From: an uncultured Anaerolineales bacterium
Lineage (GTDB): Bacteria > Chloroflexota > Anaerolineae > B4-G1
Direction of reading: 5' to 3'
Assembly: GCA_964486415.1 (NCBI GenBank)
Contig: CAZANJ010000002.1
Coordinates: 1 to 27,682 of the forward strand
DNA length: 27,682 nt
Part shown: positions 3,835-20,703 of the stretch, one piece after another
Numbering within the stretch: the stretch's first letter is position 1
How the letters are laid out: the number at the start of each line of letters is the position of its first letter
Notes under the pieces: model-generated
What the model saw: the letters and a program-made list of their open reading frames with translations, nothing else
Database searches by the model: none
What the model was told of the DNA's origin: nothing
Position numbers and translations under genes: made by a program

Positions 3835-4686
3835 TCAGGGCATCGATGGCAGTGCTGTGAGCAAGGCGTCATCGAAGTAAACGGCGTGGTAGATCTGTGC
3901 GAACTGCGTTTCCGCGAAGATACAGACCGTTGCTTGGCCTGATTGTCCTATTGTGACCTCTGGAGAGAGGAGCATCACCACCCCATCTTCCTGGTTGATG
4001 ATCTGTTCTTGGCCCCATTGCGCTTCATCACATCCCGCGTTACCTTGAGGGTCTATCCCGGCCTTTACGATGTATCCCCCCTCCGTCTCCTTGACGAATC
4101 CCCTGGCGTTTACCTGGAACTGTAGGACGGTGTTGGGCTCCGCCTGCACTGTTTGGAATACCCAAGCTTGCAATTTCACCCAGGGCGTGGTGTCGATCTT
4201 GAGCGTCGATCCGTTGATCTGGCGTTGAGGATCGGTGGCGGCCTGGAAGCGAGGGGCGGCGTAGGAAGTTTCGGGGTCGAATCCTTCACCCGGCTTCCAA
4301 TTTACGAACCCACCCGTCTGCCAACCGGGAATACTGTTTCTACTGAGGCGGTCGAAGGTTGGATTTTCGAGGGCGATGGGGGCTGGCGTGGGAGGAAGTG
4401 TCACGGTCATACGTTCAACGGGCGTGGCCCAGGAGGTGGGTAGTTCGGTCGGTGTGCTGGTCGGGCTGGGCGTGAGTGTGGCGTATGGCGTGGAGCTTGG
4501 TGTAGGCGTCCAGGTGGGCGGCTCAGTGATGGTCGGTGTAAGTGTAATCGTCGGTGTCTCGGTGGGGGGTAGGCTAGGAGATGCCGGTTGTGTCAATGAA
4601 CTACGCACGGCGTTCACCATCGCGCCTAGGATAATAATATCGGCCAATGCCAGAATTGCTACAATTATCCATTTTCTCCGGGACAT
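3835..4686 (-). CDS. membrane-anchored protein with a Pro/Thr-rich linker and a C-terminal beta-rich (carbohydrate-binding-like) domain
   Basis: Basic N-terminus plus one hydrophobic helix, then PT repeats, then an LENPTFD..PGW-type domain; SD GAGGAG upstream. Function is inferred. Confidence 0.75.
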   Translation of the reverse strand: MSRRKWIIVAILALADIIILGAMVNAVRSSLTQPASPSLPPTETPTITLTPTITEPPTWTPTPSSTPYATLTPSPTSTPTELPTSWATPVERMTVTLPPTPAPIALENPTFDRLSRNSIPGWQTGGFVNWKPGEGFDPETSYAAPRFQAATDPQRQINGSTLKIDTTPWVKLQAWVFQTVQAEPNTVLQFQVNARGFVKETEGGYIVKAGIDPQGNAGCDEAQWGQEQIINQEDGVVMLLSPEVTIGQSGQATVCIFAETQFAQIYHAVYFDDALLTALPSMP

Positions 4687-4719
4687 AAGTGACTCCTCAT
4701 TGTACTACACTTCATCACA

Positions 4720-4748
4720 AGTTTACTTCATGTTCTCTATTCCGTCAA
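4720..4748 (-). promoter_or_regulatory. sigma70 promoter for the minus-strand membrane protein gene
   Basis: On the minus strand, TTGACG-17 nt-TAAACT. Confidence 0.6.
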
Positions 4749-4786
4749 CCGGACGCGAGAGGATCGGTTTTTATTCGGCAAATGAT

Positions 4787-4815
4787 TTGACATCATTGCT
4801 GAGATGTGGTAAACT
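4787..4815 (+). promoter_or_regulatory. sigma70 promoter of the nuo operon
   Basis: TTGACA-17 nt-TAAACT with a TGTG extended -10 element. Confidence 0.75.
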
Positions 4816-4882
4816 CTATCCCGTTGTAGCCTTCTCGTCGAAAGCCGATTGAATACCATAGTGATCACCTTGGAGGAGCACA

Positions 4883-5239
4883 TTGCTGAATCAGTTTACT
4901 TTCGTCGGTGTTTTTCTTGTTATTGCGCTTGCTTTTGGTGTTGCCCCGATTGCTATTGCCTTCTTCTTACGCCCCAAGAAACCCAATTCTCGTAAAGCGT
5001 CTACCTATGAGTGCGGTCTAGAACCCTACGGTGATGCTTGGGTTCAATTCAAAGCACAGTACTATATTTTCGGCCTGGCCTTTGTCATCTTTGATGTCGA
5101 GGCCGTTTTGTTGTTGCCATGGGCTGTGGCATATCACGCGTTGGGGCTTTATGCCGTGATCGAGGCTATGATTTTCATCCTCATTTTGCTTGGCGCTCTG
5201 GTTTATGTCTGGCGCAAGGGCGCGCTTGAGTGGATGTAA
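4883..5239 (+). CDS. nuoA: complex I subunit A (TTG start)
   Basis: YECG loop, FVIFDVE, WRKGALEW; SD GGAGG. Confidence 0.96.
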   Translation: MLNQFTFVGVFLVIALAFGVAPIAIAFFLRPKKPNSRKASTYECGLEPYGDAWVQFKAQYYIFGLAFVIFDVEAVLLLPWAVAYHALGLYAVIEAMIFILILLGALVYVWRKGALEWM

Positions 5240-5313
5240 TTTATCGCGTGGCGTGATGCAACTGAGGATAGGGCGATTAGATTAGCGATCGACGCTGGGA
5301 TGGAGCTTTTTCT

Positions 5314-6501
5314 ATGGAATTTATCAAGGACTTGATCCTCAATATCGGTGGCTGGTTGCAAGGGCTATTGATGGGCACAGGGTTGGCTCCCTCTTGGGTG
5401 CAGGTGATTATGCACCTCATCGGTGGAGTTGCGTTGGCCATTGTCCCATTGGTAGCAGTGATTTTCCTCATCTGGGCAGCCCGTAAGATTGTGGGGCGAA
5501 TGCAGGATCGGCTCGGCCCCAATAACTCCGGTCCTTACCCCGGACCTTACGCTATTTTCCAGACTTTTGCTGATGCCGTCAAGATGCTGACAAAGGAAGA
5601 TGTTGTCCCCACCGCGGCCGATCGGGGAGTTTTCAACATTGCTCCAGTGGTGATCTTGGCTTCCGCCGTGCTGGTTTGGGCTGTCATTCCCTTGGGCAAA
5701 GGGCTCATCGGCGCCGATCTAAACATCGGCGTTTTTTACATTCTCTCCATTGGCTCATTGAGCCTGATCGCGCTGATGATGGCGGGATTGGGGTCCAATA
5801 ACAAGTATGCTTTAGTGGGCGCATTGCGTGCGATAGCCAGTCTGATCAGTTATGAGGTACCGCAGGTCATCGCTGTTATGACGGTGGTCATGGTCTCCGG
5901 CTCCTTCTCTATGCAACAGATCGTCGAAGCGCAGCAAGTGCCTTTTATATTCGTGATGCCCCTGACCGCTTTTCTATTCTTCGTCGGTTCCCTGGCCGAG
6001 GTAGGCCGGCAGCCCTACGACCTGACGGAGGCGGATTCGGAGATTGTGGCCGGTTACTTCGTCGAGTACAGCGGGATGAAGTTTGGGCAGTTCTATCTAT
6101 CGGAGTTTATGAATAACTTTGCCCTTGCCGTCATCACCGCGACACTCTTCCTCGGCGGGTGGCGTGGGCCATTTGTGGAAAGTGTGCCTGTTCTGGGATC
6201 GCTTTGGCTTCTGCTCAAGGCATTGCTCGTCTTCTTCGTTCTCCTGTGGTTGTGGGGTACGATGCCCCGCTTGCGCATTGACCACATGTTGAGCTTCAAT
6301 TGGAAGTTTTTGGTTCCCTTGGCGCTGGCGAACTTGTGTGTAGTGGCCTTAGTAGGCAAAATAGTGCCAATGAGCGCTCCTCCTTTAGTGCGTGCGGGAG
6401 CGTTTTTGGGGTCCAATATCCTGTTGGTATTGATTGTGTTGGTAGTGCTGGCGATTGCCGGTCGCCGAGCTCGGCGGCAGCAGCTAGAGGTTAGTGGCTA
6501 G
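5314..6501 (+). CDS. nuoH: complex I subunit H
   Basis: QDRLGPN, ADAVKMLTKE, ISYEV, RQPYDLTEADSEIVAGYFVEYSG, PRLRIDH. Confidence 0.96.
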   Translation: MEFIKDLILNIGGWLQGLLMGTGLAPSWVQVIMHLIGGVALAIVPLVAVIFLIWAARKIVGRMQDRLGPNNSGPYPGPYAIFQTFADAVKMLTKEDVVPTAADRGVFNIAPVVILASAVLVWAVIPLGKGLIGADLNIGVFYILSIGSLSLIALMMAGLGSNNKYALVGALRAIASLISYEVPQVIAVMTVVMVSGSFSMQQIVEAQQVPFIFVMPLTAFLFFVGSLAEVGRQPYDLTEADSEIVAGYFVEYSGMKFGQFYLSEFMNNFALAVITATLFLGGWRGPFVESVPVLGSLWLLLKALLVFFVLLWLWGTMPRLRIDHMLSFNWKFLVPLALANLCVVALVGKIVPMSAPPLVRAGAFLGSNILLVLIVLVVLAIAGRRARRQQLEVSG

Positions 6502-6511
6502 GGATTAGACC

Positions 6512-7015
6512 ATGCAAATTACACTTCAACAAATCTTGTTCATTATCTTAGGCGCGATCACGTTGGGGGCAGCCTTGATGGTGGTGACGCGTCGTAATGT
6601 TTTCCACGCTGCACTCTTTCTCATCTTATCCTTCTTCGGTGTGGCAGGGCTTTATGTATTGCTAGAGGCCCCTTTTCTCGCCGCCGTACAGCTGTTCATT
6701 TACATCGGCGGTATCTCGATCCTGATTATCTTCGCCATTATGCTCACGCAGAACATGATGGATCCCAACTTGCCGGGAGCCAATCGCCAGTGGTGGGCTG
6801 CGGCCTTGGTGGCCGTGGCTATTTGCGGCATTCTGGGGTGGGTGGTGTTGAACCGTAATTGGGGGACGGCTAGCGCAGAGGTGCCTCAAAACACCATCAC
6901 GATTTTGGGTACGGCTCTGATGGACCCGGAGGGATTGTTGTTGCCTTTTGAGGTGGCCTCGGTCCTTCTCTTAGTCGCTCTCGTCGGTGCTGTGACTATT
7001 GCAAGGGAGCAATGA
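6512..7015 (+). CDS. nuoJ: complex I subunit J
   Basis: QLFIYIGGISILIIFAIML and LLPFEVASVLLLVAL. Confidence 0.95.
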   Translation: MQITLQQILFIILGAITLGAALMVVTRRNVFHAALFLILSFFGVAGLYVLLEAPFLAAVQLFIYIGGISILIIFAIMLTQNMMDPNLPGANRQWWAAALVAVAICGILGWVVLNRNWGTASAEVPQNTITILGTALMDPEGLLLPFEVASVLLLVALVGAVTIAREQ

Positions 7016-7018
7016 TTT

Positions 7019-7327
7019 ATGGTTCCTTTAGCTTGGTATCTTATTCTGGCAGCAGCTTTGTTCTGCATAGGATTGTATGGCGTTCTCTCGCGGCGTAATG
7101 CTGTGGCGATTTTGATGGGCGTCGAGCTGATGCTGAACGCTGTCAACATCAATCTGGTCGCCTTTTGGCGCCATCTGGAGCCGGGAGCGGCGACAGGGCA
7201 AGCCTTCGCACTTTTCGTCTACGTCGTCGCGGCTGCCGAGGCAGCCGTGGGCTTGGCGCTCATAATAGCCGTGTGGCGCACCCGTGACACTGTTGTCCTC
7301 GAAGACATCGATTTGCTCAAAGGTTAA
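7019..7327 (+). CDS. nuoK: complex I subunit K
   Basis: [10 protein letters not shown] and [11 protein letters not shown]; both conserved Glu residues are present. Confidence 0.96.
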
Positions 7328-7341
7328 ACACCGAGGTGACT

Positions 7342-9753
7342 ATGGAGATTCTCAACCTTGCTTGGCTGATACCCCTCTTCCCATTTCTTGCATTTGTTTC
7401 AATAGCGATCTTCGCCCACCGAAGTCGCCGATTGAGCCACCAGTTGACCATTGGTGGTATCGCCTTTGCTTTTCTGATCGCGCAGATTGTCTTTTGGCGG
7501 GCGGTGACTTTGCCGGTGGGGGGCGGCGAGCATGCCTTCGAGTCATCGGCCATCCACTGGCTGGTTGCGGGTGAAGAACGGCTCACACTTGGCGTCTACG
7601 TCGATCCAGCCACGGCGGTGATGCTCTTTATGGTGCCCTTGGTCTGTATGATGATCTTCATCTACAGCGTCGGCTACATGAACTTCGGCACACCGGAGGT
7701 CGATCCCCGTTACAGCCGTTTCTTCTGTTACCTCTCCCTCTTTGCCACCGGCATGTTGGGAATGGTGGTTTTTAATAACCTGCTGGCCTTCTTCATCTTC
7801 TGGGAGATTATGGGGACTTGTTCTTATCTGTTGATCGGCTTCTGGTATGATAAAAGTTATCCCGATCCCGATAAAATCACCCCTAAGGAGGCCGGGCTGA
7901 AGGCCTTCATCGTCACCAAGATCGGCGATTTGTTCTTTATGCTTGGCTTGGCCTTGCTCTACGCCGAGGTGGGATCGCTGGCCTACCGGGACATCTTCGC
8001 CGCCGAGACGCTGGAGCATCTGGCCCATGCTAACTTCCTGGGAACTCAATGGTCGCTGGCCTCCGTGATCGCCCTGCTCTTGTTTGGCGGCACTGTCGGT
8101 AAGAGCGCACAGTTCCCGCTCCACGTCTGGCTGCCCGACGCGATGGAGGGGCCCACACCTGTCTCCGCCCTCATCCACGCCGCAACGATGGTTTCGGCCG
8201 GCGTCTTCCTCGTGGTGCGCTCCTTCCCGATTTTCGCTGCGGTCGAGGGCACCCATATGACGATTGTGGCGACCATTGGGGCTTTCACGGCCATCTTTTC
8301 GTCCGTCATCGCCATCGCGCAAGATGATATAAAGGGAGTGCTGGCCTTCTCTACTATCAGTCAGTTGGGATATATGGTTGCTGCGTTGGGTATCGGCGCT
8401 TATGTGGCTGGAGCCTTCCACCTCATCACTCACGCTTTCTTCAAGGCGCTCTTGTTCCTCAGTTCCGGCTCGGTGATCCACGGTATGGAACATGGACATC
8501 ATCACGTCCACGAGCATGCGGAGCACCACAATGATGATAATGAGAATCATGAGGAGCATGATGAGCACGGCGAGCACGAGGAAGAGGAGTGGTTCAACCC
8601 CAATGACATGAAGAATATGGGCGGCCTGGCAAAACGTATGCCGCGTACCGCTTTGCCATTTCTCGCCGGTGGGTTGGCTCTCTCCGGTTTTCCCCTGTTC
8701 ACTGCCGGTTTCTGGTCGAAGGATGAGATACTGGCCCAGGCTTACGAGCTATCCCCCGCCGTCTTCTGGACGCTGGGTATGGCCGCTGTGCTGACCGCTT
8801 TCTACACCGCGCGTCAACTCTGCTTGACCTTCCTGGGGGAGCCGCGCACCGAGGCCGCCAAGCACGCGCCGGAGAGTGTGCCATCTATGACGACCCCCCT
8901 GGCTATCCTGGCTGTCTTCGCCATTATTCTGGGCTGGGCTGGTATTCCGGAGCATTTCCCCGTCATCGGTGGGATTATCCCCAACTGGGTCCATCACTTC
9001 GTCGGATCGACAATTGCGGGGGGGCACGCTGAGCATGCAACGAAAGTAGCCGGGCATCTCTCGGAGGCCGCAGAGGCAGGCTTTGTATGGCAGCCATTGG
9101 TGATGAGCATCCTCTTCGCGCTGGGCGGGTTGACGTTGGGGTGGTTGGTTTATGGCCGCAAGCCGATGGTAGCCGGTGAGATGGATCGGGTGGAAGCAGC
9201 AATGCGCAAAGTGGGCCTGGGATGGCTGTACGAAGCTATGCGCAACCAATTCTACTTCGATGAAATCTACCAGACGATAGTTGTGCGCCCCTCCATCTGG
9301 TTGGCGGACGTTTTTGACACGTTCGACTATGGCCGCGAAGAGGGCAAGCATGGCGTGGTAGATGGCATAGTGACCTTGGCCGGGAAGATAGGAAGGGCTG
9401 TGTCCGACATATCCGGATGGCTTGATGCCAAAATTGTGGATGGATTGGTCAACCTGGTCGGGGGCTTAGGAAAGGCCATATCCTGGGTCAGTGGTTGGCT
9501 CGACGTCAACATCGTGGATGGGTTGGTCAATCTGGCGGGCAGCGCTGGAGCCCTGCTATCCAATGGGCTCAACAGCTTCGATCTCACTGTGGTGGACGGC
9601 GCCGTCAACGGCGTCGCCGATGTCGTCATGGGCGGTGGGAAGGCAATCCGCCCCATTCAGACCGGTAAAGTTCAAAACTATCTGCTGCTGGCATCCCTGA
9701 TGGTGCTGGCATTAATCTTGACATTCTTTGTGATATTGTTCTTGCAAATCTAG
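7342..9753 (+). CDS. nuoL: complex I subunit L with a His/acidic insertion and a greatly extended lateral helix (alternative GTG start at 7336)
   Basis: FWEIMG, GKSAQFPLHVWLPDAMEGPTPVSALIHAATMV, HAFFKALLFL, FWSKDEI, QTGKVQNY. Confidence 0.96.
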   Translation: MEILNLAWLIPLFPFLAFVSIAIFAHRSRRLSHQLTIGGIAFAFLIAQIVFWRAVTLPVGGGEHAFESSAIHWLVAGEERLTLGVYVDPATAVMLFMVPLVCMMIFIYSVGYMNFGTPEVDPRYSRFFCYLSLFATGMLGMVVFNNLLAFFIFWEIMGTCSYLLIGFWYDKSYPDPDKITPKEAGLKAFIVTKIGDLFFMLGLALLYAEVGSLAYRDIFAAETLEHLAHANFLGTQWSLASVIALLLFGGTVGKSAQFPLHVWLPDAMEGPTPVSALIHAATMVSAGVFLVVRSFPIFAAVEGTHMTIVATIGAFTAIFSSVIAIAQDDIKGVLAFSTISQLGYMVAALGIGAYVAGAFHLITHAFFKALLFLSSGSVIHGMEHGHHHVHEHAEHHNDDNENHEEHDEHGEHEEEEWFNPNDMKNMGGLAKRMPRTALPFLAGGLALSGFPLFTAGFWSKDEILAQAYELSPAVFWTLGMAAVLTAFYTARQLCLTFLGEPRTEAAKHAPESVPSMTTPLAILAVFAIILGWAGIPEHFPVIGGIIPNWVHHFVGSTIAGGHAEHATKVAGHLSEAAEAGFVWQPLVMSILFALGGLTLGWLVYGRKPMVAGEMDRVEAAMRKVGLGWLYEAMRNQFYFDEIYQTIVVRPSIWLADVFDTFDYGREEGKHGVVDGIVTLAGKIGRAVSDISGWLDAKIVDGLVNLVGGLGKAISWVSGWLDVNIVDGLVNLAGSAGALLSNGLNSFDLTVVDGAVNGVADVVMGGGKAIRPIQTGKVQNYLLLASLMVLALILTFFVILFLQI

Positions 9754-9838
9754 CAAGTAGGCAAGTGGGCAAGTGGGCTAGTAGGCAAGTGAACAAGTAG
9801 CATAGATAAGTCGGACACTTGCAGACCTGCAAACTTGC
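9753..9838. repeat. octamer array: 6 direct units (GCAAGTRG-like) followed by 3 inverted units (..ACTTGC)
   Basis: gcaagtag gcaagtgg gcaagtgg gctagtag gcaagtga acaagtag ... acacttgc agacctgc aaacttgc. Confidence 0.8.
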
Positions 9839-9863
9839 AGACTCAAAAGAAGGAGAGCATACT

Positions 9864-11390
9864 ATGTTTCCAATTCTAAGCGTTACCCTGTTTGCCCCGC
9901 TGGTGGGCGCCCTACTCATTTTGGTCATCCCGCGTGAGGATGTTAAGACAATCCGGCGGATGGGGACCGCGTTTGCTTTCCTGACGCTCATCCTCACAAC
10001 TATCATCTGGGTGAGTGTGGCGCAGTCAGGGGCCGGCGTTATGCAGTTTGAGGAGAACTATCCCTGGATCAAGGCATTCAATGTGCGGTTTCACCTCGGG
10101 GTGGATGGTCTCAGTGCACCTTTGCTCTTCTTGACTGCCCTGTTGACCACTCTTGTGACGTTCTACTCATCTTATACCATTGACGACCGGGTCAAGGAAT
10201 ACTATTTCTTGTTCCTGTTGCTTGAGATGGGTATGAGCGGTGTATTCCTTTCCCTGGATCTGGTGCTGTTCTACGTCTTCTGGGAGATCGGTTTGGTGCC
10301 GATGTTCTTGCTTATCGGTGTGTGGGGCGGAAAGCGCCGCCTGTACGCGGCCATCAAGTTCTTCCTCTACACGCTCGTGGGCAGCGTGGCGATGTTGCTG
10401 GCCATCATCGGCGTTTATTTCCAAACCGGCACCTTCGACATATTGGAAGCGGCTGCGGCACAACCCTTCGCTGGCAATTTCACTTGGGCTAGTGTAGCTT
10501 TTTGGGCCTTCTTCGTCGCCTTTGCCATCAAGGTGCCAGCTTTCCCCTTCCACACTTGGTTGCCAGACGCTCATACAGAGGCGCCCACTTCGGGTAGTGT
10601 CATTCTGGCGGGCGTCTTGCTGAAGTTGGGGGCTTATGGTTTGATGCGTATCGCGCTGCCATTCTTCCCAGCACAGTTCAAGTACTTTGTCGTGAACGTG
10701 CCAATTGTTCCCATTATGGCGGTGATGAGTATTGCCTACGGAGCGATGGTCTGTATGGCGCAGTGGGACCTTAAACGGCTGGTTGCTTACTCCTCGGTGG
10801 CTCATATGGGCTACGTCACACTGGGGCTATGCGCGGCAGCGGCTGGCATCGGGATGCTGGATGATCCGGCGAACCTCAGCGCGGCGGCCTCGGGCCTCAG
10901 CGGCGCGGCATTCCAGATGTTCGCGCACGGCATCATCACGGGAGGGATGTTTTTCCTGGTCGGTATGATCTACGATCGGGCCCACACGCGCGACCTGAAG
11001 GTCTTTGGCGGACTCGGTAAGCAGATTCCTTATTATTACGGGATTGTGATGGTTACCGGGTTTGCGTCCCTGGGGCTTCCCGGCTTGGCTGGCTTCTGGA
11101 GTGAGTTCTTCGTCTTCCGGGGCACAATCCGCTTTATCCCCTTGGCCGCTTTCATCGGCGTGATCGGAGTAGTCTTCACCGCTGCCTATATCCTGTGGAA
11201 AGTTGTACAGCACCTCTTCTTGGGGGATCTGGACAAGGAGAAGTGGGGCAAGCTGACCGACATGACCTGGTGGGAAAAGGTAACAATGTGGCCTTTGGTG
11301 ATCATCATGGTTTTCCTCGGTATCTATCCCGCTCCCCTGCTGGATATGTTCAACGCTGCGCTCACAGGGGTTTTGCGGGCGCTGCCGTAA
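9864..11390 (+). CDS. nuoM: complex I subunit M (start set at ATG 9864 after SD AAGGAG)
   Basis: LGVDGLS, FWEIGLVPM, AIKVPAFPFHTWLPDAHTEAP, LLKLGAYG, DLKRLVAYSSVAHMG, FWSEF. Confidence 0.96.
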   Translation: MFPILSVTLFAPLVGALLILVIPREDVKTIRRMGTAFAFLTLILTTIIWVSVAQSGAGVMQFEENYPWIKAFNVRFHLGVDGLSAPLLFLTALLTTLVTFYSSYTIDDRVKEYYFLFLLLEMGMSGVFLSLDLVLFYVFWEIGLVPMFLLIGVWGGKRRLYAAIKFFLYTLVGSVAMLLAIIGVYFQTGTFDILEAAAAQPFAGNFTWASVAFWAFFVAFAIKVPAFPFHTWLPDAHTEAPTSGSVILAGVLLKLGAYGLMRIALPFFPAQFKYFVVNVPIVPIMAVMSIAYGAMVCMAQWDLKRLVAYSSVAHMGYVTLGLCAAAAGIGMLDDPANLSAAASGLSGAAFQMFAHGIITGGMFFLVGMIYDRAHTRDLKVFGGLGKQIPYYYGIVMVTGFASLGLPGLAGFWSEFFVFRGTIRFIPLAAFIGVIGVVFTAAYILWKVVQHLFLGDLDKEKWGKLTDMTWWEKVTMWPLVIIMVFLGIYPAPLLDMFNAALTGVLRALP

Positions 11391-11467
11391 CTAAAACGTG
11401 AAAACGTAAAGCGTAGGTGTGACTCAAAACATCACATTCGCGCTTTATGTATAGTAGGAGGACAACG

Positions 11468-12943
11468 TTGTTCGGAGAACCGACACTCACGTTAGGCCAG
11501 ACGCTATGGCTGCTCTCGCCGGAACTGGTGCTTCTCTTGACAGGCTTCCTCATTATGGGACTGGATGCTATCCATCCGCAAAAAGAGGAAAAGCGCTGGG
11601 TGCCTTATGTTGCCTTGGGAGGGCTAGCCGTTGCCCTGATCGCATCTATCACCCTTTGGGGTTGTAACACCAGGGTGCTCTTCATGTTTTCCTGTGACCC
11701 CTTCTCGTTGGTCGTTAATATGGTGGCTATGTTGGCTGTGGGGCTTGTGATACTCACATCCGACCTGTACATTCGAGTGCATAGTCGGTATCAGGGTGAG
11801 TTTTACGCTCTCCTGCTCTTCTCAGCTCTAGCCATCTGCCTGTTGGGTGGGGCGACTAACTTGATTATGGTCTTCTTGGCTTTTGATTTCCTGAGCATCA
11901 CGTCATATATTCTCACCGGCTACTTGCGTGAGGATCAAAAGTCAACAGAGGCTGCGATCAAGTATTTTCTCTACGGCGCAGCTCTCTCCGCAATAATGCT
12001 TTATGGAATGTCCTGGTTCTATGGGCTGACCGGCTCCACAGACCTGAGCGGTATTGCAATGGTTCTCATGGAAGGGGAGCGTGTACTGCGTCCAATCATC
12101 TTGCCAGCCTTGATCTTTATCGCCGCTGGCTTCGCCTTCAAAATCGCCGCTGTGCCATTTCACCAATGGGCTCCTGATGCTTATGAAGGTGCCCCGACTC
12201 CGGTAACGGCTTTTCTCTCTGTCGGGCCCAAGATCGGTGGCTTCGCTGTCATCCTACGGGTGCTTTTAACCGCCTTGCCTGGTGATCTGGTGAACCTGGC
12301 GATGGATTGGCGGGCACTGCTGATGGCGGTCTCTATGCTCACGATGACGGTCGGCAATCTGGTAGCGCTTTGGCAGAAGAACATCAAACGCCTGCTGGCT
12401 TACTCCAGCATCGCGCAGGCCGGTTACATCCTTATCGGCGTGGTGGCAGCCTCTCCTCGGGGAGCGACGGCGGTTTTGCTCTACTTGGCGGCTTATGTGC
12501 TGACCAACTTGGGCGTTTTCGCCGCTATCATCGCTTTCTCCAACCAGGTCGGGTCCGATGACATAGACGATTACGCGGGACTGAGCAAGCGGGCTCCTGG
12601 GCTGGCCTTGGTGATGATTGTCTGTCTGCTCTCGTTAGGAGGCCTCCCACCGACGGCCGGCTTCATCGGCAAGCTGTGGCTCTTCTCCGCGGCGATCGAG
12701 GATGGGTTAATCTGGCTCGCTGTGGTCGGCGTGATCAACAACGTCATCTCTCTATCCTACTACTGGAAGGTAATCCGCGCGATGTACCTCACCCCTGCGC
12801 AGAACGGGGAACCGCTGTCTACCTCGTCCGCGCTGGCTGTTGCGCTGGGGGTGTCTGTGGTGGGCGTTCTGGTCGTGGGAGTCTTCCCTGGCCCGCTTCT
12901 GGCACTGCTCCAGGCAGCAGCGCTGACCTTTTTCGGCGGGTGA
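11468..12943 (+). CDS. nuoN: complex I subunit N (TTG start after SD AGGAGG)
   Basis: EAAIKYFL, FKIAAVPFHQWAPDAYEGAPTP, NIKRLLAYSSIAQAGY, GFIGKL. Confidence 0.95.
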   Translation: MFGEPTLTLGQTLWLLSPELVLLLTGFLIMGLDAIHPQKEEKRWVPYVALGGLAVALIASITLWGCNTRVLFMFSCDPFSLVVNMVAMLAVGLVILTSDLYIRVHSRYQGEFYALLLFSALAICLLGGATNLIMVFLAFDFLSITSYILTGYLREDQKSTEAAIKYFLYGAALSAIMLYGMSWFYGLTGSTDLSGIAMVLMEGERVLRPIILPALIFIAAGFAFKIAAVPFHQWAPDAYEGAPTPVTAFLSVGPKIGGFAVILRVLLTALPGDLVNLAMDWRALLMAVSMLTMTVGNLVALWQKNIKRLLAYSSIAQAGYILIGVVAASPRGATAVLLYLAAYVLTNLGVFAAIIAFSNQVGSDDIDDYAGLSKRAPGLALVMIVCLLSLGGLPPTAGFIGKLWLFSAAIEDGLIWLAVVGVINNVISLSYYWKVIRAMYLTPAQNGEPLSTSSALAVALGVSVVGVLVVGVFPGPLLALLQAAALTFFGG

Positions 12944-12967
12944 CTCGTCATGGGCTCAGTCGAACGA

Positions 12968-12995
12968 TTGTCTTCTGAGGGGATTGTGTTATAAT
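12968..12995 (+). promoter_or_regulatory. internal sigma70 promoter in front of the Fo genes
   Basis: TTGTCT-16 nt-TATAAT with a TGTG extended -10 element. Confidence 0.6.
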
Positions 12996-13005
12996 GTTTC
13001 CCGCT

Positions 13006-13503
13006 ATGGATACCGGAAATAAACAAGGGAACGAACTACAGGCCGTCATCCTCCCCTCTTTGGGGCTGGGTATTCAGATCGCTGGTGTGGTGGTAGTGGC
13101 GGTGCTGGGCAGCCTGTTCCTGGGGCTGTGGATTGACCGCCGACTGGGGAGCACTCCCTGGGCCACGCTGCTTTTGTTGGGCCTGGGTACGCTGGTGGCC
13201 ATGATCAGCTGCTACCGCGCGATGGCCCCGGTGATCGCACATCTGGCAGCCGGTCAGGAGGTCGAGTGGGGAGAATCCCTGCGCACCCTGGCTTTCGTCG
13301 CTCAGACGGAGCTGGTGGTCACCACTCCGCTGCTGGTCGGTCTCTTGCTGGGTCTGTGGGTGGACGTTCGATTGGATACTAGTCCATGGGTGACCTTGGC
13401 TCTGACGGTTTTGGGGGCTGTGGCGGGGTTGGTGGGCGCATGGCGCTTGCATTCTGCATTTCTGAAACGAACGGCTAAAGGTGATCAAGAGGAGAATCTG
13501 TAA
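13006..13503 (+). CDS. AtpZ/ATPase gene-1-like membrane protein with two tandem domains (alternative start 12994)
   Basis: Two copies of the G.W.D....(T/S).PW hairpin motif, GLWIDRRLGSTPW and GLWVDVRLDTSPW; first gene of the atp cluster. Confidence 0.75.
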   Translation: MDTGNKQGNELQAVILPSLGLGIQIAGVVVVAVLGSLFLGLWIDRRLGSTPWATLLLLGLGTLVAMISCYRAMAPVIAHLAAGQEVEWGESLRTLAFVAQTELVVTTPLLVGLLLGLWVDVRLDTSPWVTLALTVLGAVAGLVGAWRLHSAFLKRTAKGDQEENL

Positions 13504-14324
13504 TGGAACTTGTGCGCGAGTTGCCCCACATCTCAATGGCTGCTGAGACGCTCTTTCACATCGGTCCTTTGCCCGTCACCAATTCCCTTTTTACTACGTG
13601 GATTTGCATGTTGCTCCTCATTGTTCTCTCATGGTTGTTCTCCAAGAGTATGAAGCTTGTTCCCACTCCCTTGCAGAACCTGATCGAGACGGCCATTGAG
13701 ATGTTTTACGACGGCGTAGCCAAAGCGAGGGCCAGCGAGCATGCTGAACTTTTTCTTCCCCTTGCTGGCACCCTTTTCTTCTTCATCCTCCTCGCCAACT
13801 GGATGGGTTTGCTGCCGTTCTTTGGATCTGTTGGATTCATAATGGAGCACCATGGTGAAGAGATGTTCGTTCCTTTGTTGCGCCCGGCCAATGCTGACCT
13901 GAACACCACGCTTGCTCTGGCACTCTTCTCAGTGATCGCCACCCAGATCTACGGGATCAAGGTGCAAGGCTTCTTCGGCTACGCCAACCGATTTATTAGA
14001 GTGGACAGATTCGTGGAGTTCTTCAAGCGACGGCGCGACCCTATGTTGCTTATGAATGGCGTAATCGATCTCTTCATCGGGGCGTTGGAGATGCTTGACG
14101 AGCTGACGAAGCTTCTCTCCTTCTCCTTCCGTCTGTTCGGCAATATCTTCGCCGGTGAGGTGTTGCTGATCGTGATTTCTATGCTGCTTCCCTACGTCGC
14201 ACCGTTGCCTTTTATGGCACTGGAGCTTTTCGTCGGTTACATTCAGGCTCTTATTTTTGCAAGTCTGACGCTGGTCTTCATGAAGCAAGCAACAGCTGCC
14301 CATGGTCACGACGAAGGGCACTGA
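13503..14324 (+). CDS. atpB: ATP synthase Fo subunit a
   Basis: LLRPANADLNTT, SFSFRLFGNIFAGE with the essential Arg, ELFVGYIQALIF. Confidence 0.96.
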   Translation: MELVRELPHISMAAETLFHIGPLPVTNSLFTTWICMLLLIVLSWLFSKSMKLVPTPLQNLIETAIEMFYDGVAKARASEHAELFLPLAGTLFFFILLANWMGLLPFFGSVGFIMEHHGEEMFVPLLRPANADLNTTLALALFSVIATQIYGIKVQGFFGYANRFIRVDRFVEFFKRRRDPMLLMNGVIDLFIGALEMLDELTKLLSFSFRLFGNIFAGEVLLIVISMLLPYVAPLPFMALELFVGYIQALIFASLTLVFMKQATAAHGHDEGH

Positions 14325-14450
14325 ACGCTCTAAATCGAAAAAAGGACGTAATGCGTAAGAACCTGAACGTTAGTGGATCTATCGTAAGGTAAGAATAGAT
14401 GAGAATCCGAAAGTTAGTGAATTTGAATCGTAACAAGGAGGAAAAACAAA

Positions 14451-14669
14451 ATGGATAAGAATCTGATAGCAGCGTTGACTATCGTTCTGGGGGCTATTAC
14501 GCCGGCTGCGATGATTGGCCGCTTCTCGACCGAGGCGATGCGATCGCTGGGGCGCAATCCAGAGTCTGGCGCTCCGATCAGCGCCAATCTGATCCTGGCG
14601 TTGGCCCTGAGCGAGGCGATTGCCATCTATTCCTTGGTGGTCGCTCTGGCCATCAAGTTCGTGGAGTAA
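14451..14669 (+). CDS. atpE: ATP synthase Fo subunit c
   Basis: GRNPE loop and the ion-binding Glu in LSEAIAIY; strong SD AAGGAGG. Confidence 0.95.
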   Translation: MDKNLIAALTIVLGAITPAAMIGRFSTEAMRSLGRNPESGAPISANLILALALSEAIAIYSLVVALAIKFVE

Positions 14670-14685
14670 GATAAGGAGGCTGGCT

Positions 14686-15201
14686 TTGGAAGCCCTAGGG
14701 ATTAACCTATATGTTCTGATCGCCCAGGTCATCAACCTTGCCATTCTGTTCCTCGTGCTCCGTTCTTTGCTCTTCAAGGGTTTTCTGAAGAAGATGGAAG
14801 AGCGCAAGCAGAAGATCCAGCAGGGCCTAGAGGAGGCCGAGCGCGCCCAAGAAAAGGCGACGCGAGCCGAGGCGATCTACCAGGAGCGCATGGAGCAGAT
14901 TGAGCGGGAGCGGGAAGCCCTCATTGCCGAGGCAAGGGAAGAGGCCGAGCGGCTGCGGGCAGAGATGGTGGCGCAGGCGCGAGAGGATGCCCGTGAAGAG
15001 GCGCGCCGCATCATCGCGCAGGAACGGGAAGAGTTCGAGGCCGAGCGCCAGCAGGCTATCGCCGATATGCACAGCCAGATGGTCAGCCTGGTTATGACTG
15101 CCACCCGCAAGGTGGTCGAGGAGGGCATAGACGAGCAGGTGCAACACCGGCTGATTGATCGCTTCCTGGACGAGACGGGCGCGCTGGGGAGAATCCAATG
15201 A
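14686..15201 (+). CDS. atpF: ATP synthase Fo subunit b (TTG start after SD AGGAGG)
   Basis: EALGINL..LIAQVINL TM helix followed by a long E/A/R coiled coil. Confidence 0.92.
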   Translation: MEALGINLYVLIAQVINLAILFLVLRSLLFKGFLKKMEERKQKIQQGLEEAERAQEKATRAEAIYQERMEQIEREREALIAEAREEAERLRAEMVAQAREDAREEARRIIAQEREEFEAERQQAIADMHSQMVSLVMTATRKVVEEGIDEQVQHRLIDRFLDETGALGRIQ

Positions 15202-15701
15202 ATAGTAACAGCAATCCTGCCGAGGCCTGGGAAGGTGACCTGAAAACAATCGCGGAGCGGCTGCAGCGTCGAAATCTGATATCGCCGGAGCAAGCCACGA
15301 CCTTGGAAGCGCTGACCAGTGAGTTTGAGAGACTTTCCAAGTACGAGCCCGGTATGGCGATGCCGCTGGTAGCCACGATATTCTGGGCTGTCGAGTTCGA
15401 GCGGCTGTCACAGCAGCAGGCACAGGCCGCCGGGATGGTGGCGTGGGTGCGCAGCGCGGTTCCACTCACTGGGGAAGAGCGCGAACAGCTCAGACGCCGT
15501 CTACGAGAACATTTCGGTCAAGATTTTGTCCTGCGCGTGGAGGTTGACCCGTCACTCATTGGCGGCCTGGTGGTTCGAGCCAAAGACCGGGTCTTCGACA
15601 GCAGCGTTGCTGGCAGGTTGGACGCCCTCGATGAACGCCTGAGAACCGCTGTTGAAGAACAGATATCACTTGCTCAGGAACTCCAAGAGACAGATGAATA
15701 A
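15198..15701 (+). CDS. atpH: ATP synthase delta-like protein (canonical C-terminal domain, unrecognised N-terminal domain)
   Basis: VRSAVPL..L...L...VDPSLIGGLVVR..D.V.DSSV.GRL. Confidence 0.85.
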   Translation: MNSNSNPAEAWEGDLKTIAERLQRRNLISPEQATTLEALTSEFERLSKYEPGMAMPLVATIFWAVEFERLSQQQAQAAGMVAWVRSAVPLTGEEREQLRRRLREHFGQDFVLRVEVDPSLIGGLVVRAKDRVFDSSVAGRLDALDERLRTAVEEQISLAQELQETDE

Positions 15702-15715
15702 AAAGGAGTAGCCGT

Positions 15716-16024
15716 ATGCCACAAATTCCCGAATTGGCGAACGCCGTTCTCTTTTTTGCTCCCGGCTTCCTGCTCGTGCAGACGCTCTACCTTGGCGGCA
15801 TTGCACGCAGACGCTCGAATTTTGAAACGGTGGTCTGGAGCGTCATCGTCGGTGTGTTCATCCGTTGGGCCTCCGCGGAGCTTGTCGGACGACTTAGTTT
15901 GGGGATCGAGCCAGGCTTGGATCTGGAGATAGCTCTCCTGGGCCTGACCCTCGCTGCGGGTGTGATTGTACGAACGTTTGTCTCCCTGTTTGCCTTCGGG
16001 AGAGAGGAAGAGGAACGGGTATAG
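15716..16024 (+). CDS. small hypothetical membrane protein (about 3 TM), possibly DUF6338-like
   Basis: SD AAGGAG; hydrophobic, with FFAPGFL...SNFETVVWS. The family resemblance is from memory only. Confidence 0.6.
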   Translation: MPQIPELANAVLFFAPGFLLVQTLYLGGIARRRSNFETVVWSVIVGVFIRWASAELVGRLSLGIEPGLDLEIALLGLTLAAGVIVRTFVSLFAFGREEEERV

Positions 16025-16027
16025 GTA

Positions 16028-16141
16028 ATGACCAATGAGCCAATTACAAATGATAGCGGGCTGATGGTGCGCGTGGGCGAGTGGGTGGTGGGCGGCAGCG
16101 TCGCTGGACAACTAGAGCAATTGCAACAATCCTTGATCTAG
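16028..16141 (+). pseudogene. 37-codon ORF carrying the C-terminal end of a second ATP synthase delta domain
   Basis: GLMVRVGEWVVGGSVAGQLEQLQQSL aligns without gaps to GLVVRAKDRVFDSSVAGRLDALDERL of the upstream delta (12/26 identical). Confidence 0.6.
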
Positions 16142-16218
16142 AAGATAATATCTCACTGTAGTTGTTTATCAATCCGGTCTGGCAAGTAGTTGATAAGATA
16201 GTTCAACCGCAGAAATGT

Positions 16219-16255
16219 AAGAGCAGTTCGTACTCAGTTTGTGCGGACTGCTCTT
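16219..16255 (+). terminator. 15-bp stem-loop, possible terminator or stabiliser after the atp cluster
   Basis: AAGAGCAGTTCGTAC-tcagttt-GTGCGGACTGCTCTT, fully paired allowing two G-U pairs; the U-tract is weak. Confidence 0.45.
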
Positions 16256-16314
16256 GTGGTTTTCTGGCTGACGGAGAAAGCCTAATCTGCTGAATAGAGG
16301 GAGGAACCGAAAAG

Positions 16315-16539
16315 ATGACTACTCGTGAAGTCATATTAAATATGCCCGAGGGGCTGTACAGTCAGCTTGAAGCGGCAGCGACTCAGATGCAGCGTGATAC
16401 CAACTCGGTTATCTTGGATGCTCTTTCTGCCTACGTTCCTCCTCTTACGCCCGATTTGAACGCTGAGTTAGCGGCCTGGGACACTCTCAGCGACGAGGCC
16501 CTATGGGACTTCGAAAGCGATCTGAAGACTTCAAGCTGA
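16315..16539 (+). CDS. putative type II antitoxin (RHH-like N-terminus, acidic C-terminus)
   Basis: 74 aa, SD GGAGG, TGATG overlap with a PemK-like gene; ELAAWD..SDEALW tail. Confidence 0.7.
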   Translation: MTTREVILNMPEGLYSQLEAAATQMQRDTNSVILDALSAYVPPLTPDLNAELAAWDTLSDEALWDFESDLKTSS

Positions 16540-16876
16540 TGCACCAGGGTGACGTTTATCTCGTGCAACTGCCCGTGGTCGATGGTCGGGAACAAGCCGG
16601 TAGCCGACCGACTATCATCATTCAGGATCCGGTGACCGGCGGGCCGCCCCCACTGTCTTAATCGTTCCTCTGACCTCCCAGATGGCGGCCTCCAGATTCC
16701 CCGGCACCCTGGTCATTTAACCTGATGACCAGAACAGCTTAGTGTCCAAATCGGTGGCGCTTGTCTTTCAGACTCGTGCCATCGATCGGCGACGGCTGGG
16801 GGCAAGGTTGGGCTCCATCAAGCCTCGACAATTGGAGAAAATCCTTCAGTTGCTCGATCAACTCCTTGGCAGGTAG
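16539..16876 (+). pseudogene. PemK/MazF-family toxin pseudogene
   Basis: MHQGDVYLVQLP..DGREQAGSRPTIIIQD, then a frameshift near 16640-16650, then PTVLIVPLTS..FPGTLVI*(TAA 16718-16720)PD..SVALVFQTRAIDRRRL..LGSI..LDQLLGR*. Confidence 0.85.
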
Positions 16877-16970
16877 AATTCCTAACGTAAGCCCCACGCT
16901 TTTTGGGAGCAAAATTATTGCTCGGCGCCTTTGTGGTATCTAATGGTGTAGACGAGTTAGGAACACAGAA

Positions 16971-18524
16971 ATGAAACTGAGCTGTCTGCTCGAAGCTTTG
17001 CCCGCTATTCTGGCGCGAATCGGCGACGATGTTGAGATACATAACATCGTCGCCGATTCGCGCCAGGTGCACCCCGGTGATCTTTTCATCGCCATCCCTG
17101 GTCTCACGGTCGATGGTCATCGCTTCGTCGCCGAAGCTGTGGCGAAAGGCGCAGCCGCTATCGCTGGCGAGAGGTCCCTTGATGACCTGCTGGATTTACC
17201 GCGCTCCATTCCTTACATCCGCGTTCCCAATGCACGGGAAGCCTGGGGCTGGTTGTGCGCTGCTTGGCACGATTTCCCCGCTCGAAAAATGACACTCATC
17301 GGTGTCACTGGCACGGATGGAAAGACTACCACAGTCAACTTCGTCCACGCTATCCTGCGCGCTGCGGGAGCCAACGTAGGGATGCTTAGCACCGTGAGCG
17401 CGCACATCGATGGAGAAGAGGTCGATACAGGGCTTCACACAACAACCCCCGATCCCCCTGATGTTCAGCGATATCTGGCCCGTATGTTAGAGGCTGGCGC
17501 CACACACGCTGTGCTGGAGGTCACATCGCATGGGCTGGCTCAGCAGCGGGTGGCAGGTTGTGATTTCGACGTGGCCGCTTTGACCAATATAACCCATGAG
17601 CACCTTGATTTTCACCATTCTCTGGATGCCTATCGACGAGCCAAGGCCCGTCTCTTCGAGGGGCTGGCGCATTCCTTTCGCAAGCGTGGCGTGCCAAAGG
17701 TTGCGGTTCTCAATCGAGACGATGCTTCCTTCTCTTTCATGAGCGCCATTTCTGTTGATCGAAAACTTCACTACGCTATAGAGAGCGAGGCTGATGTAAC
17801 TGCTCGTGAAATCCGCTTCGCTCCTGACCGGACTGGATTTATACTGGTCGCGCCCACTGGCGAGATCGCTGTGGAGACACACCTGGTGGGGGCCTACAAT
17901 GTGAGCAATGCTCTGGCTGCAGCGACTATCGGTGTGGCTATAGGCCTTTCCTTGGAGGATATTGCGGAGGGAATCGCCGCTTTGCGCAGCGTTCCTGGGC
18001 GGATGGAGCGTATCGAGGAGGGACAGGATTTCCTGGCCCTCGTCGATTTCGCGCATACACCCAACGCGTTGGCGCAAGCGCTGCAAACAGCACAGAGTAT
18101 GACGACCGGGCGTGTGCTCGTCGTCTTCGGCTGTGCGGGTCTGCGAGATCGGGATAAGCGCCCTATGATGGGGCGAATTGCTGGACAGTTGGCCGATGTG
18201 GTGATTGTCACCGCCGAGGATCCACGCACCGAAAGCCTGGATGAGATTATGAGGCTCGTCGTCTCCGCTGCTGAGGAAACGGGTAAGCGTGAGGGAGTTG
18301 ACCTATTCCGTGTTCCGGATCGGGGAGAAGCACTCATGAAGGCATGTGAGGTGGCGGAAAGCGGCGATGTTGTCATCGCTTGCGGAAAAGGGCATGAACA
18401 GAGCATGTGCTTCGGCGCCACTGAATATCCTTGGGACGACCGCGAGGCGATGCGGCTCGCGGTTCAAGGGAAGACTCTGAACACACTTCCGACAGTTGAG
18501 GTAGAGGATGGGGAAGGAGAATGA
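16971..18524 (+). CDS. murE: UDP-N-acetylmuramoyl-dipeptide--diamino acid ligase
   Basis: DSRQV..GDLFIA, GVTGTDGKTT, TTPD, EVTSHGL, TNITHEHLDFH, VDFAHTP, FGCAG.RD..KR, GKGHE. Confidence 0.93.
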   Translation: MKLSCLLEALPAILARIGDDVEIHNIVADSRQVHPGDLFIAIPGLTVDGHRFVAEAVAKGAAAIAGERSLDDLLDLPRSIPYIRVPNAREAWGWLCAAWHDFPARKMTLIGVTGTDGKTTTVNFVHAILRAAGANVGMLSTVSAHIDGEEVDTGLHTTTPDPPDVQRYLARMLEAGATHAVLEVTSHGLAQQRVAGCDFDVAALTNITHEHLDFHHSLDAYRRAKARLFEGLAHSFRKRGVPKVAVLNRDDASFSFMSAISVDRKLHYAIESEADVTAREIRFAPDRTGFILVAPTGEIAVETHLVGAYNVSNALAAATIGVAIGLSLEDIAEGIAALRSVPGRMERIEEGQDFLALVDFAHTPNALAQALQTAQSMTTGRVLVVFGCAGLRDRDKRPMMGRIAGQLADVVIVTAEDPRTESLDEIMRLVVSAAEETGKREGVDLFRVPDRGEALMKACEVAESGDVVIACGKGHEQSMCFGATEYPWDDREAMRLAVQGKTLNTLPTVEVEDGEGE

Positions 18525-18528
18525 AGGC

Positions 18529-19293
18529 ATGCCATATGTGGAAATAGTCGATGGGAACCTTTTCTATAGCCTGAGCCGAGGAGAGAAGGGCTATCCTGCG
18601 TTGGTACTTGTGCATGGGGCTGGAGGCAGCCGTTTGCATTGGCCGCCAGAACTACGTCGTTTACCTGGCGCCACGGTCTACACGCTTGATCTGCCCGGTC
18701 ACGGGCGTTCGGATGGTCCTGGTCATGATACCATAGAGGGCTACGCGGGTGCAGTCGCTACTTTCCTTAGCACACTTGATATCGAGCGAATTGTTGTCGT
18801 GGGGCATTCTATGGGCGGAGCCATAGCCCAGGCTTTGGCTCTGGGATCACCGGACCGGCTGACCGGGCTAGTGCTGATGGCGACTGGAGCGCGGCTGCGT
18901 GTAGCCCCATTCATTCTCCGGGGAATCTGTGATGACTTTGAGGAGACTGTAGGGATTATCACGCGGTTAGCTTGGTCTCCGGAGACAAGCCCGGATTTGA
19001 TTGAACTGGGGCGGCAAGCGCTTTTGGATGCGGGGCCCGCTGTGCTGAAGAGTGATTTTGTGGCATGTGACCGCTTCAACGTGATGGAGAGGTTGGGGGA
19101 GATCAGCGTTCCCACCTTGGTCATCGGCGGTACAGCGGATCAACTCACGTCGGTCAAGTATGCGCACTTTTTAGCCGAGCACATCCCCAGCGCTCAATCC
19201 TTGATCCTTGAAGGCGCTGGGCATATGGTTATGTTGGAGCGGCCCCGACAGGTTTCAGCAGCGATAAGTGGATTTCTTATGGAACTCCGTTAG
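18529..19293 (+). CDS. alpha/beta fold hydrolase (start set at ATG 18529)
   Basis: LVHGAGG, DLPGHGRS, nucleophile GHSMGG, acid GTAD, His in AGHMVMLE. Confidence 0.9.
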   Translation: MPYVEIVDGNLFYSLSRGEKGYPALVLVHGAGGSRLHWPPELRRLPGATVYTLDLPGHGRSDGPGHDTIEGYAGAVATFLSTLDIERIVVVGHSMGGAIAQALALGSPDRLTGLVLMATGARLRVAPFILRGICDDFEETVGIITRLAWSPETSPDLIELGRQALLDAGPAVLKSDFVACDRFNVMERLGEISVPTLVIGGTADQLTSVKYAHFLAEHIPSAQSLILEGAGHMVMLERPRQVSAAISGFLMELR

Positions 19294-19440
19294 GTTCTGA
19301 AGTCAGGCCGCTCACCCGGCTTTCTAGTTTAGAGATCATTGAAAAACTTGCTCCGAGACCCGTTTCGGTCCGCCCGTTGAAGGTGGGCTAGAGCAATTTT
19401 TAATGCTCTCTTTCTCTTATTTCACTCATCCCTCACGTTT

Positions 19441-20703
19441 TCAAATTTGCACGAACAGATTGAGGAAGTCCTCGTTGCTCTGAGTTCGTTTGAGGACACT
19501 GAGTAACTCTTGCATTGCTTGGCCCCTGCTGTAACCGGAGCTTTGCGAATCCAAGAAGCGCTGTCGCATCATCCACACCTTCTGCTGTGTATCCTCATCT
19601 AGCAGCAATTCCTCTCGACGTGTGCCCGAACGCTCGATGTCGAAAGCCGGGAAGATACGGCGTTCCTGCAACAGGCGGCTCAGATGGAGCTCCATGTTGC
19701 CGGTGCCCTTGAATTCCTCGTAGATCATGTCGTCCATCCTGCTACCTGTGTCTATCAGACATGTGGCGATAATGGTCAGACTGCCTCCCTCCTCAATGTT
19801 GCGAGCTGCACCAAAGAAGTGCTTGGGGGGATAGAGCGCGCCGGGATCAAGCCCGCCAGAGAGAGTGCGACCACTAGGCTGCACCACCAAGTTGTAAGCT
19901 CGCGAGAGTCGGGTGATGCTGTCTAGAAGAATGACGACATTCTCTTGTTTCTCCACCAACCGCTTGGCCCGTGCCAGGGCTGTCTCCGCCACCTGAGCGT
20001 GACTGCGCACTCGCTCATCGAATGTCGAACTTATCACTTCGGCATCCACTGAGCGATCCATATCGGTGACCTCCTCAGGTCTTTCGCCGATTAGCGCCAC
20101 CATCAGATGAACTTCCGGGTGGTTAGTCGTTATGCCGTTGGCTATGCGCTTGAGCACGGTGGTTTTGCCCGCTTTCGGTGGAGATACGATGAGGCCGCGT
20201 TGCCCCTTCCCAATCGGCGCGATCATGCTTAGCAATCGTGTCGTTAAATCTCCGTCCAGTATGAACGGTTCATCAGGAAATATTGGCGTCAGCGACTCGA
20301 AGTGGGGACGGTGCTTGGCAATTTCTGGATCATCGCTATTGACTGCCTCCACGCGCAGGAGGCTGTAGTACCTCTCATTCTCCTTGGGCGGCCTTATCTG
20401 CCCGATCACCAGATCGCCCGTGCGCAACCCAAAGCGTCTGATCTGGGATTGTGAGACATAGATGTCGTTCGGCCCCGGCTTATACTTTTCAGGGCGCAAA
20501 TAACCCTTATTCTCATCGATTATGTCCAGCACGCCGCCGCCGAAGATCAATCCCTCTTGTTCTGTTTTAGCTTGTAGTAGGCGGATGATCAAGTCGTCTT
20601 TGTTCAAACGGCTATAACCGGACACGTCCCAATCTCGGGCCAAATCGCGTAGCTCCGTCAGCGTCTTAGCTTGCATATCGGCTATGTTGATTTCTGAGTT
20701 CAC
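19441..20703 (-). CDS. rho: transcription termination factor Rho
   Basis: N-terminal L..LAR helix domain, [57 protein letters not shown]. Confidence 0.98.

Follow-up and report, generated by a model that had tools for sequence, protein, structure and literature searches.

Membrane and stator genes of an F-type ATP synthase set apart from F1 genes in an Anaerolineales bacterium: a probable split of the atp operon between delta and alpha

The F1Fo ATP synthase of Chloroflexus aurantiacus (PDB 9itj series; Caur_3040-3047; PMC12002316) is encoded by eight genes, which all lie in one cluster. The enzyme has the composition a2-b4-delta2-c10, with two a subunits, two stalks and a dimer of the N-terminal regions of delta, and the short N-terminal region of delta has been described as a feature shared by the Chloroflexi (PMC12002316). 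Split atp loci are well known from other bacteria, where the cut may fall at nearly any junction, the one between delta and alpha being used in the Chlorobi; in the survey of complete genomes by Koumandou and Kossida (2014), the Chloroflexi were scored as unsplit (PMC4154653). Here we have analyzed an atp cluster found in a stretch of 27,682 nucleotides (hereafter the window; contig CAZANJ010000002.1, assembly GCA_964486415.1) from an uncultured Anaerolineales bacterium. The cluster encodes AtpZ, the Fo subunits a, c and b, and subunit delta; unlike the C. aurantiacus locus, it holds no gene for alpha, gamma, beta or epsilon. It is highly probable that this locus is the Fo and peripheral-stalk module of an ordinary proton-driven F-type ATP synthase, the F1 half of which is encoded elsewhere.

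The Fo genes of the window were identified by Pfam (Table 1). A tblastn search with a full set of F1 proteins detected no alpha, gamma, beta or epsilon gene in the 27.7 kb, the sole match of an F1 query being a weak P-loop similarity of rho (19441-20703). In subunit a, the essential arginine is R210 of the motif FSFRLFGNIFAGE (codon 14130-14132), located in the penultimate membrane helix. Among solved structures, C. aurantiacus subunit a (9itj_T) is its best relative (E 4.8e-43), and the arginine motif aligns with an identical one in that protein (FRLFGNIFAGEVLL). Subunit c, whose best solved relative is again the C. aurantiacus protein (9itj_H), carries its ion-binding glutamate at E55 of LSEAIAIY (codon 14613-14615) and retains the RNPE loop. 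The glycine motif of its first helix is degenerate (GAITPAAMIG), as it is in all Anaerolineae loci including those with a canonical operon. The window genes thus encode a complete Fo sector, with the arginine of a and a c hairpin bearing both the carboxylate and the R-N/Q-P loop, as well as a peripheral stalk made of b and delta/OSCP, the N-terminal domain of delta lying outside the canonical profile. These data bear out the first-pass annotation of the window, which had described an Fo-only atp cluster with an intact proton path and no F1 genes. The ratio of nonsynonymous to synonymous substitution rates (dN/dS) was calculated against locus L006, which comes from a metagenome-assembled genome (MAG) of a separate Anaerolineales species. 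The lowest value was that of c (0.03), followed by delta (0.14), a (0.17), AtpZ (0.30) and b (0.31). All Fo genes are thus under purifying selection and are working genes.

In subunit delta, as in its C. aurantiacus counterpart, the C-terminal domain is canonical, whereas the N-terminal region is short and non-canonical. Its best solved relative, the C. aurantiacus delta (9itj_S), was aligned over residues 80-148, and the N-terminal regions of the two proteins have no significant sequence similarity. The window delta may be a full protein of the Chloroflexi type rather than a truncated one, and its short N-terminal region may be the reason why only the C-terminal half matches Pfam. The enzyme may share the architecture of the Chloroflexus enzyme, with its two a subunits and two stalks; the likeness seen in the window consists of sequence kinship to the 9itj subunits and of the short N-terminal region of delta. 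AtpZ and the products of the two small open reading frames (ORFs) that follow delta differ in that they are not among the subunits of the purified C. aurantiacus enzyme.

We then compared the organization of the locus with that of its relatives. Upstream on the + strand, the window contains dnaG, rpoD and the complex I genes for the membrane arm, which end 50 bases before the atp cluster; nuoB, nuoC, nuoD and nuoI were not found by Pfam in this complex I cluster (4883-12943). The nuo membrane-arm genes and the atp cluster are probably one transcription unit or are at least tightly linked. The homologs of subunit a were annotated as Anaerolineae or Chloroflexota, and the percentages given for loci refer to identity with the window a subunit, which ranged from 53 to 76% in the seven related split loci; in six of these, the atp genes stand immediately 3′ of complex I membrane-arm genes. 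A scan of a genome collection with subunit a yielded L006 (76%), where Fo and delta genes stand without F1. The same layout recurred in L007 (58%; nuoAHJ-KLMN-atpZ-a-c-b-delta-small ORF), L009 (61%; nuo-atpZ-a-c-b-delta-small ORF, followed further on by murE) and L024/L025 (70%; H+-pyrophosphatase-nuoKLMNN-atpZ-a-c-b-delta-small ORF). L010 (58%) has nuoD-H-I-J-K-L-M-N-atpZ-a-c-b-delta-small ORF-H+-pyrophosphatase, with nuoD and nuoI still in place, and L011 (53%) has nuo-atpZ-a-c-b-delta-H+-pyrophosphatase, the small ORF being missing. The linkage of nuo to atpZ is thus kept in L007, L009, L010, L011 and L024, and a gene for H+-pyrophosphatase is a frequent neighbour. No F1 gene was detected by tblastn in the sequences of L006, L007, L009, L010 and L011, and the L024/L025 contigs carry none as far as they extend. 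In L008 (49%) and L012, which are more distantly related, the order is the canonical atpZ-a-c-b-delta-alpha-gamma-beta-epsilon (atpZBEFH-AGDC). Because the relatives share the Fo-only layout and these two are canonical, the cut between delta and alpha is a derived and stable feature of one Anaerolineae clade.

Searches for the alpha subunit led to stand-alone atpA-G-D-C-mreB clusters in the same group. In L014-L017, atpAGDC-mreB is not accompanied by any Fo gene within 10 kb upstream, and in L018-L023 the same cluster has no Fo gene in the 0.1-2 kb of upstream sequence. Since mreB is also found 3′ of atpC in the canonical L012, this suggests that F1 stayed in place and that the part comprising Fo and delta moved. 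One MAG, GCA_034717375.1, holds both a subunit a (MEA3340864.1; P0023) and an alpha subunit (MEA3341490.1; P0286), and the two halves lie on different loci. Its contig JAYELH010000620.1 carries hppA-nuoKLMNN-atpZ-a-c-b-delta, with an a subunit 70% identical to that of the window. Its contig JAYELH010000855.1 carries cdsA-uppS-frr-pyrH-tsf-rpsB-regulator followed by atpA-G-D-C, and has no Fo of its own. The genes that flank this F1 cluster are orthologs of the genes at the right end of the window (68-82% identity), and the Fo genes are equally diverged, which argues against a binning error in GCA_034717375.1. The first-pass annotation had listed an F1 encoded elsewhere among its possible explanations, and the clade-wide Fo-only loci, the stand-alone atpAGDC clusters and the separate contigs of this MAG all support it.

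Several points weigh against this conclusion. For the organism of the window itself, F1 genes could not be recovered, so that only the Fo half was seen, and MAG bins can be contaminated. In L026, which belongs to GCA_034717375.1, the regulator is directly followed by atpAGDC, and synteny predicted the same just to the right of the window; this failed for the first 2.4 kb. Indeed, a contig reaching 2.4 kb past the right end (L027; 1-2202 is the part outside the window) has no atpA, and beyond rpsB it contains a response regulator and then a gene for a DUF2298 membrane protein. A scan of JGI metagenomes with the alpha subunit P0286 gave generic matches; among the matches listed, the best did not exceed 82% identity, and the sample of the window was not represented. 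In runs X1-X3, one Logan contig (atpG-atpD-like, about 1.7 kb, matching L034 at 2036-2860) had depths of 29.2, 14.6 and 16.1, as compared with 27.6, 14.5 and 15.4 for the contig of the window. The comparison with L034, made at 80% likeness, drew alpha and beta genes from many organisms. This contig is a suggestive candidate for a piece of this organism's F1 locus, a hint and not a proof.

We propose that an ancestral atpZBEFH-AGDC operon was cut between delta and alpha in this Anaerolineae clade. The membrane and stator half now lies 3′ of the complex I membrane-arm genes, and the catalytic half atpAGDC remains as a cluster of its own elsewhere, with mreB as its typical 3′ neighbour. Both halves would be made separately and then form a single enzyme, which is also what happens in other bacteria whose atp genes are split, so that no free, uncapped Fo would arise. 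The window's organism would accordingly carry a stand-alone F1 locus and presumably no second Fo. A lone atpAGDC block with no other Fo in the genome had been named beforehand as the mark of an ordinary split operon, and such a block is present in the related MAG GCA_034717375.1. Since the part of this argument that concerns a second Fo is left to inference, the main support for an ordinary split comes from the pattern seen across the clade. In E. coli, delta has been reported to join the a-b2 module to the c-ring-F1 complex, so that the proton path forms late. Furthermore, F1 is able to assemble independently, and it is the finished head to which delta binds (PMC8904574). With independent assembly of F1 and a late proton path, separation of the genes poses no special uncoupling problem. 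The worry raised initially, that Fo without F1 would uncouple the membrane, takes adjacent genes for granted, and in many bacteria they are not adjacent (PMC4154653); nothing in the data points to a free-running proton leak.

Splits of this kind are known from other phyla. The alphaproteobacteria, with Rhodospirillum as an example, have atpIBEXF and atpHAGDC; there too, Fo and F1 belong to two transcription units and form one enzyme, but delta is encoded with F1 and not, as here, with Fo. In the Chlorobi (I-a-c-b-delta; alpha-gamma; beta-epsilon), the locus is cut at the same junction and delta stays with Fo (PMC4154653). They differ by an additional cut between gamma and beta, whereas atpAGDC is undivided here, and a linkage to nuo is not described in that survey. 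The operon of the N-ATPases (atpD-C-Q-R-B-E-F-A-G) resembles the window in having small PF09527-type membrane proteins beside a, c and b; however, it has no delta and contains its F1 genes, while the window has delta and the order Z-a-c-b-delta. An identity as N-ATPase was rejected on these grounds and because a and c group with the F-type proteins of Anaerolineae and Chloroflexus. A literature search found no report of an atp split in Chloroflexi.

Could the missing F1 genes be an artefact? The window is a metagenome contig, and F1 might have been lost from it by a misassembly that created a chimera or truncated the operon. The string formed by delta, the small ORF, the toxin-antitoxin genes and murE is, however, the same in the JGI, ENA and Logan assemblies, at least five of which are independent. 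The exact a-subunit protein was found on contigs of several runs, three of which run past delta, the small ORF and the toxin-antitoxin genes into murE. In addition, the interval 12900-17100 is bridged in each of three runs by Logan contigs of even depth (27.6, 14.5 and 15.4) that are free of joints and indels. Because independent assemblies and joint-free contigs of three runs agree, the junction after delta is real and not an assembly artefact. The same gene order after delta is also found in the separate species L006, and the probability of a chimera is negligible. Nor is the cluster likely to be a decaying relic in an organism that has lost F1, an explanation to which we give hardly more credit and which the selection data already contradict: gene fragments do lie 3′ of the cluster (the delta fragment and a broken mazF here, a c fragment in L009), but all five atp genes are intact and constrained, their catalytic residues are kept, and the layout is stable across relatives down to 53% identity.

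The first-pass annotation had also considered a second Fo sharing F1 with another operon and a rotor gated by some other cap, and the data favored neither. An auxiliary Fo that shares the F1 of a complete atp operon in the same genome is conceivable in principle, given that it is common for a genome to encode more than one rotary ATPase (PMC11738941). Yet the nearest relatives of subunit a all have the same Fo-only layout, the alpha gene of GCA_034717375.1 is in a cluster without its own Fo and makes this Fo its natural partner, and a, c and delta are of the mainstream Anaerolineae/Chloroflexus type and strongly constrained. We regard this explanation as improbable. Still less probable is an Fo that works without F1, being gated or capped by the 102-amino-acid protein or the delta-like peptide, or coupled to another machine. 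The conserved orphan membrane ORF and the mini-ORF resembling the delta C-terminus, which follow delta only in the split clade, would fit such a role. On the other hand, the cluster retains b and a full delta, whose sole known role is to hold F1, and stand-alone atpAGDC clusters co-occur in the lineage; besides, the small ORF is weakly constrained and is missing in L011. An ordinary synthase encoded in two halves remains by far the best account of the locus.

Table 1. Features of the atp cluster and its surroundings in the window
Feature	Position	Strand	Evidence and remarks
nuoA, H, J, K, L, M, N (complex I membrane arm)	4883..12943	+	Pfam; directly 5′ of the atp cluster
Promoter-like site, TTGTCT-16-TATAAT with TG	12968..12995	+	Between nuoN and atpZ; consensus match only
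atp cluster, whole	12994-16141	+	AtpZ, a, c, b, delta, 102-amino-acid membrane ORF, 37-amino-acid delta-like mini-ORF
atpZ/atpI-like, membrane protein with tandem double PF09527 (ATPase_gene1/AtpZ)	12994..13503	+	Pfam E 2.1e-22, two stretches
atpB, Fo subunit a	13503..14324	+	Pfam ATP-synt_A PF00119, E 6e-44
atpE, Fo subunit c	14451..14669	+	Pfam ATP-synt_C PF00137
atpF, subunit b, TTG start, 171 amino acids	14686..15201	+	ATP-synt_B PF00430; NCBIfam TIGR01144 above cut-off; gene call in L001
atpH, subunit delta	15198..15701	+	OSCP/delta PF00213 above cut-off, profile positions 92-172 only
Predicted three-helix membrane protein, 102 amino acids, acidic tail, good Shine-Dalgarno sequence	15716..16024	+	No family in Pfam or NCBIfam
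Mini-ORF, 37 amino acids, delta C-terminus-like	16028..16141	+	OSCP positions 147-172 (Pfam, E 1.8e-4), in agreement with the delta models of NCBIfam
Terminator-like hairpin, 18 pairs, then GTTTTCT	16216..16258	+	Best in 3700-17100
Putative antitoxin, 74 amino acids, intact; neighbour, outside the atp cluster	16315..16539	+	Position 5′ of mazF; L006 ortholog, dN/dS 0.045
mazF/pemK pseudogene; neighbour, outside the atp cluster	16539..16880	+	Pfam

Some features of individual subunits are recorded here. AtpZ is conserved across all Anaerolineae loci examined, and in every one of them (L006-L012 and the window) it is a tandem duplication of PF09527, in split and canonical loci alike. In the window, an alternative ATG start of atpZ at 13006 corresponds to the start used in the first-pass annotation. 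The deltas of canonical Anaerolineae operons are still shorter, with 117-120 amino acids (L008, 11742-12104; L012, 6891-7244), and one relative encodes a delta-alpha fusion of 639 amino acids (P0129). Alpha subunits of 550-554 amino acids (P0344, P0330 and others, from Anaerolineales/Thermoflexia) contain an insertion of about 45 amino acids (…HYIIVPKDAP…EIRKKPGT…) in the region of the nucleotide-binding domain.

Downstream of delta, the first-pass annotation had listed a small membrane protein, a delta fragment, a hairpin and a toxin-antitoxin locus; the series stands up to and including the antitoxin, and the toxin gene mazF is a pseudogene. The 102-amino-acid ORF belongs to a very small family: a set of 1.84 billion proteins contained just 10 representative clusters of it. 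Homologs occur directly after delta in L006, L007, L009, L010 and L025, and the ORF is present in the split clade wherever the contig extends beyond delta, with the exception of L011. Its dN/dS value against L006 (0.44) indicates weak constraint. The 37-amino-acid mini-ORF is in frame with this ORF, from which it is separated by a single TAG and one codon. The same in-frame arrangement after TAG is found in three lineages, i.e. the window, L006 (12518-12631) and L025 (5151-5213). Recoding of this TAG is unlikely, as TAG is the stop codon of 8 of the 29 genes here. Across the three lineages, a core of about 56 nucleotides (around 16045-16103) has 88-93% nucleotide identity, its flanks cannot be aligned, and one in-frame indel of 12 nucleotides lies immediately 5′ of it.

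We considered several explanations for this conserved block. The core is conserved to roughly the same degree as the best-conserved portions of atpE and atpZ, so that synonymous-site conservation was rejected as an exceptional property of the mini-ORF; it denotes constraint and not uniqueness. An Rfam search of the whole window returned no family. A consensus fold of the three sequences gave a hairpin of invariant pairs only, with no covariation support. A four-tract G-quadruplex was dropped because the fourth G-tract is missing in L025, and a gene on the antisense strand was set aside since L006 has a different frame there. Judged from these alignments, the delta-like element is constrained, at the level of either a peptide or an RNA. 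It is doubtful, though less so than the rival explanations above, that the 102-amino-acid protein and the delta-C-like peptide are genuine new parts of the stator module, acquired when the operon was split, as separate products or as a read-through protein of 141 amino acids. A possible role would be that of a membrane-tethered mimic of the delta C-domain at the tip of the b stalk, or of a chaperone for a-b-delta, until F1 docks. If so, it would stop proton conduction by Fo while the halves are made from different loci.

The terminator-like hairpin likely marks the 3′ end of the operon, and an analogous hairpin of different sequence is found in L006 and L025. In mazF of the neighbouring toxin-antitoxin genes, the reading frame is shifted by +1 within a C-run near 16645-16650 and is interrupted by a TAA codon at 16717-16719. 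An intact type II MazEF pair in the window was therefore rejected. The L006 ortholog of mazF is intact (115 amino acids). Run X3 contained two variant contigs of 126 nucleotides at 16688-16813, within mazF, which indicates that the population is polymorphic there. Downstream of the small ORF, L009 has a fragment resembling the C-terminal helix of subunit c (12606-12695, E 0.002), and L025 has a 64-amino-acid fragment of H+-pyrophosphatase (5422-5616). The region 3′ of the operon seems prone to rearrangement. Between window positions 12950-19300 and L006, nucleotide identity is about 80-85% over the atp genes and 93-100% over murE and a hydrolase gene, a mosaic that suggests recent recombination between the two lineages.

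Taken as a whole, the window most probably holds one half of an ordinary atp locus that was split between delta and alpha, an arrangement that is known and is new only for the Chloroflexota. An Fo-only gene cluster need not mean a naked proton channel, split atp loci being common. A sizeable Anaerolineae clade has the delta/alpha split, as against the survey in which Chloroflexi were scored as unsplit (PMC4154653). In this clade, the genes for the membrane and stator parts of the ATP synthase adjoin those for the membrane arm of complex I, in many cases together with a gene for H+-pyrophosphatase, and the soluble parts are encoded elsewhere. This provides a natural example of genes grouped by cellular compartment and not by enzyme. 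If Chloroflexi enzymes carry two a subunits and two stalks (PMC12002316), one may speculate that expression of a, b and delta apart from alpha3beta3-gamma-epsilon could help to set this unusual stoichiometry.

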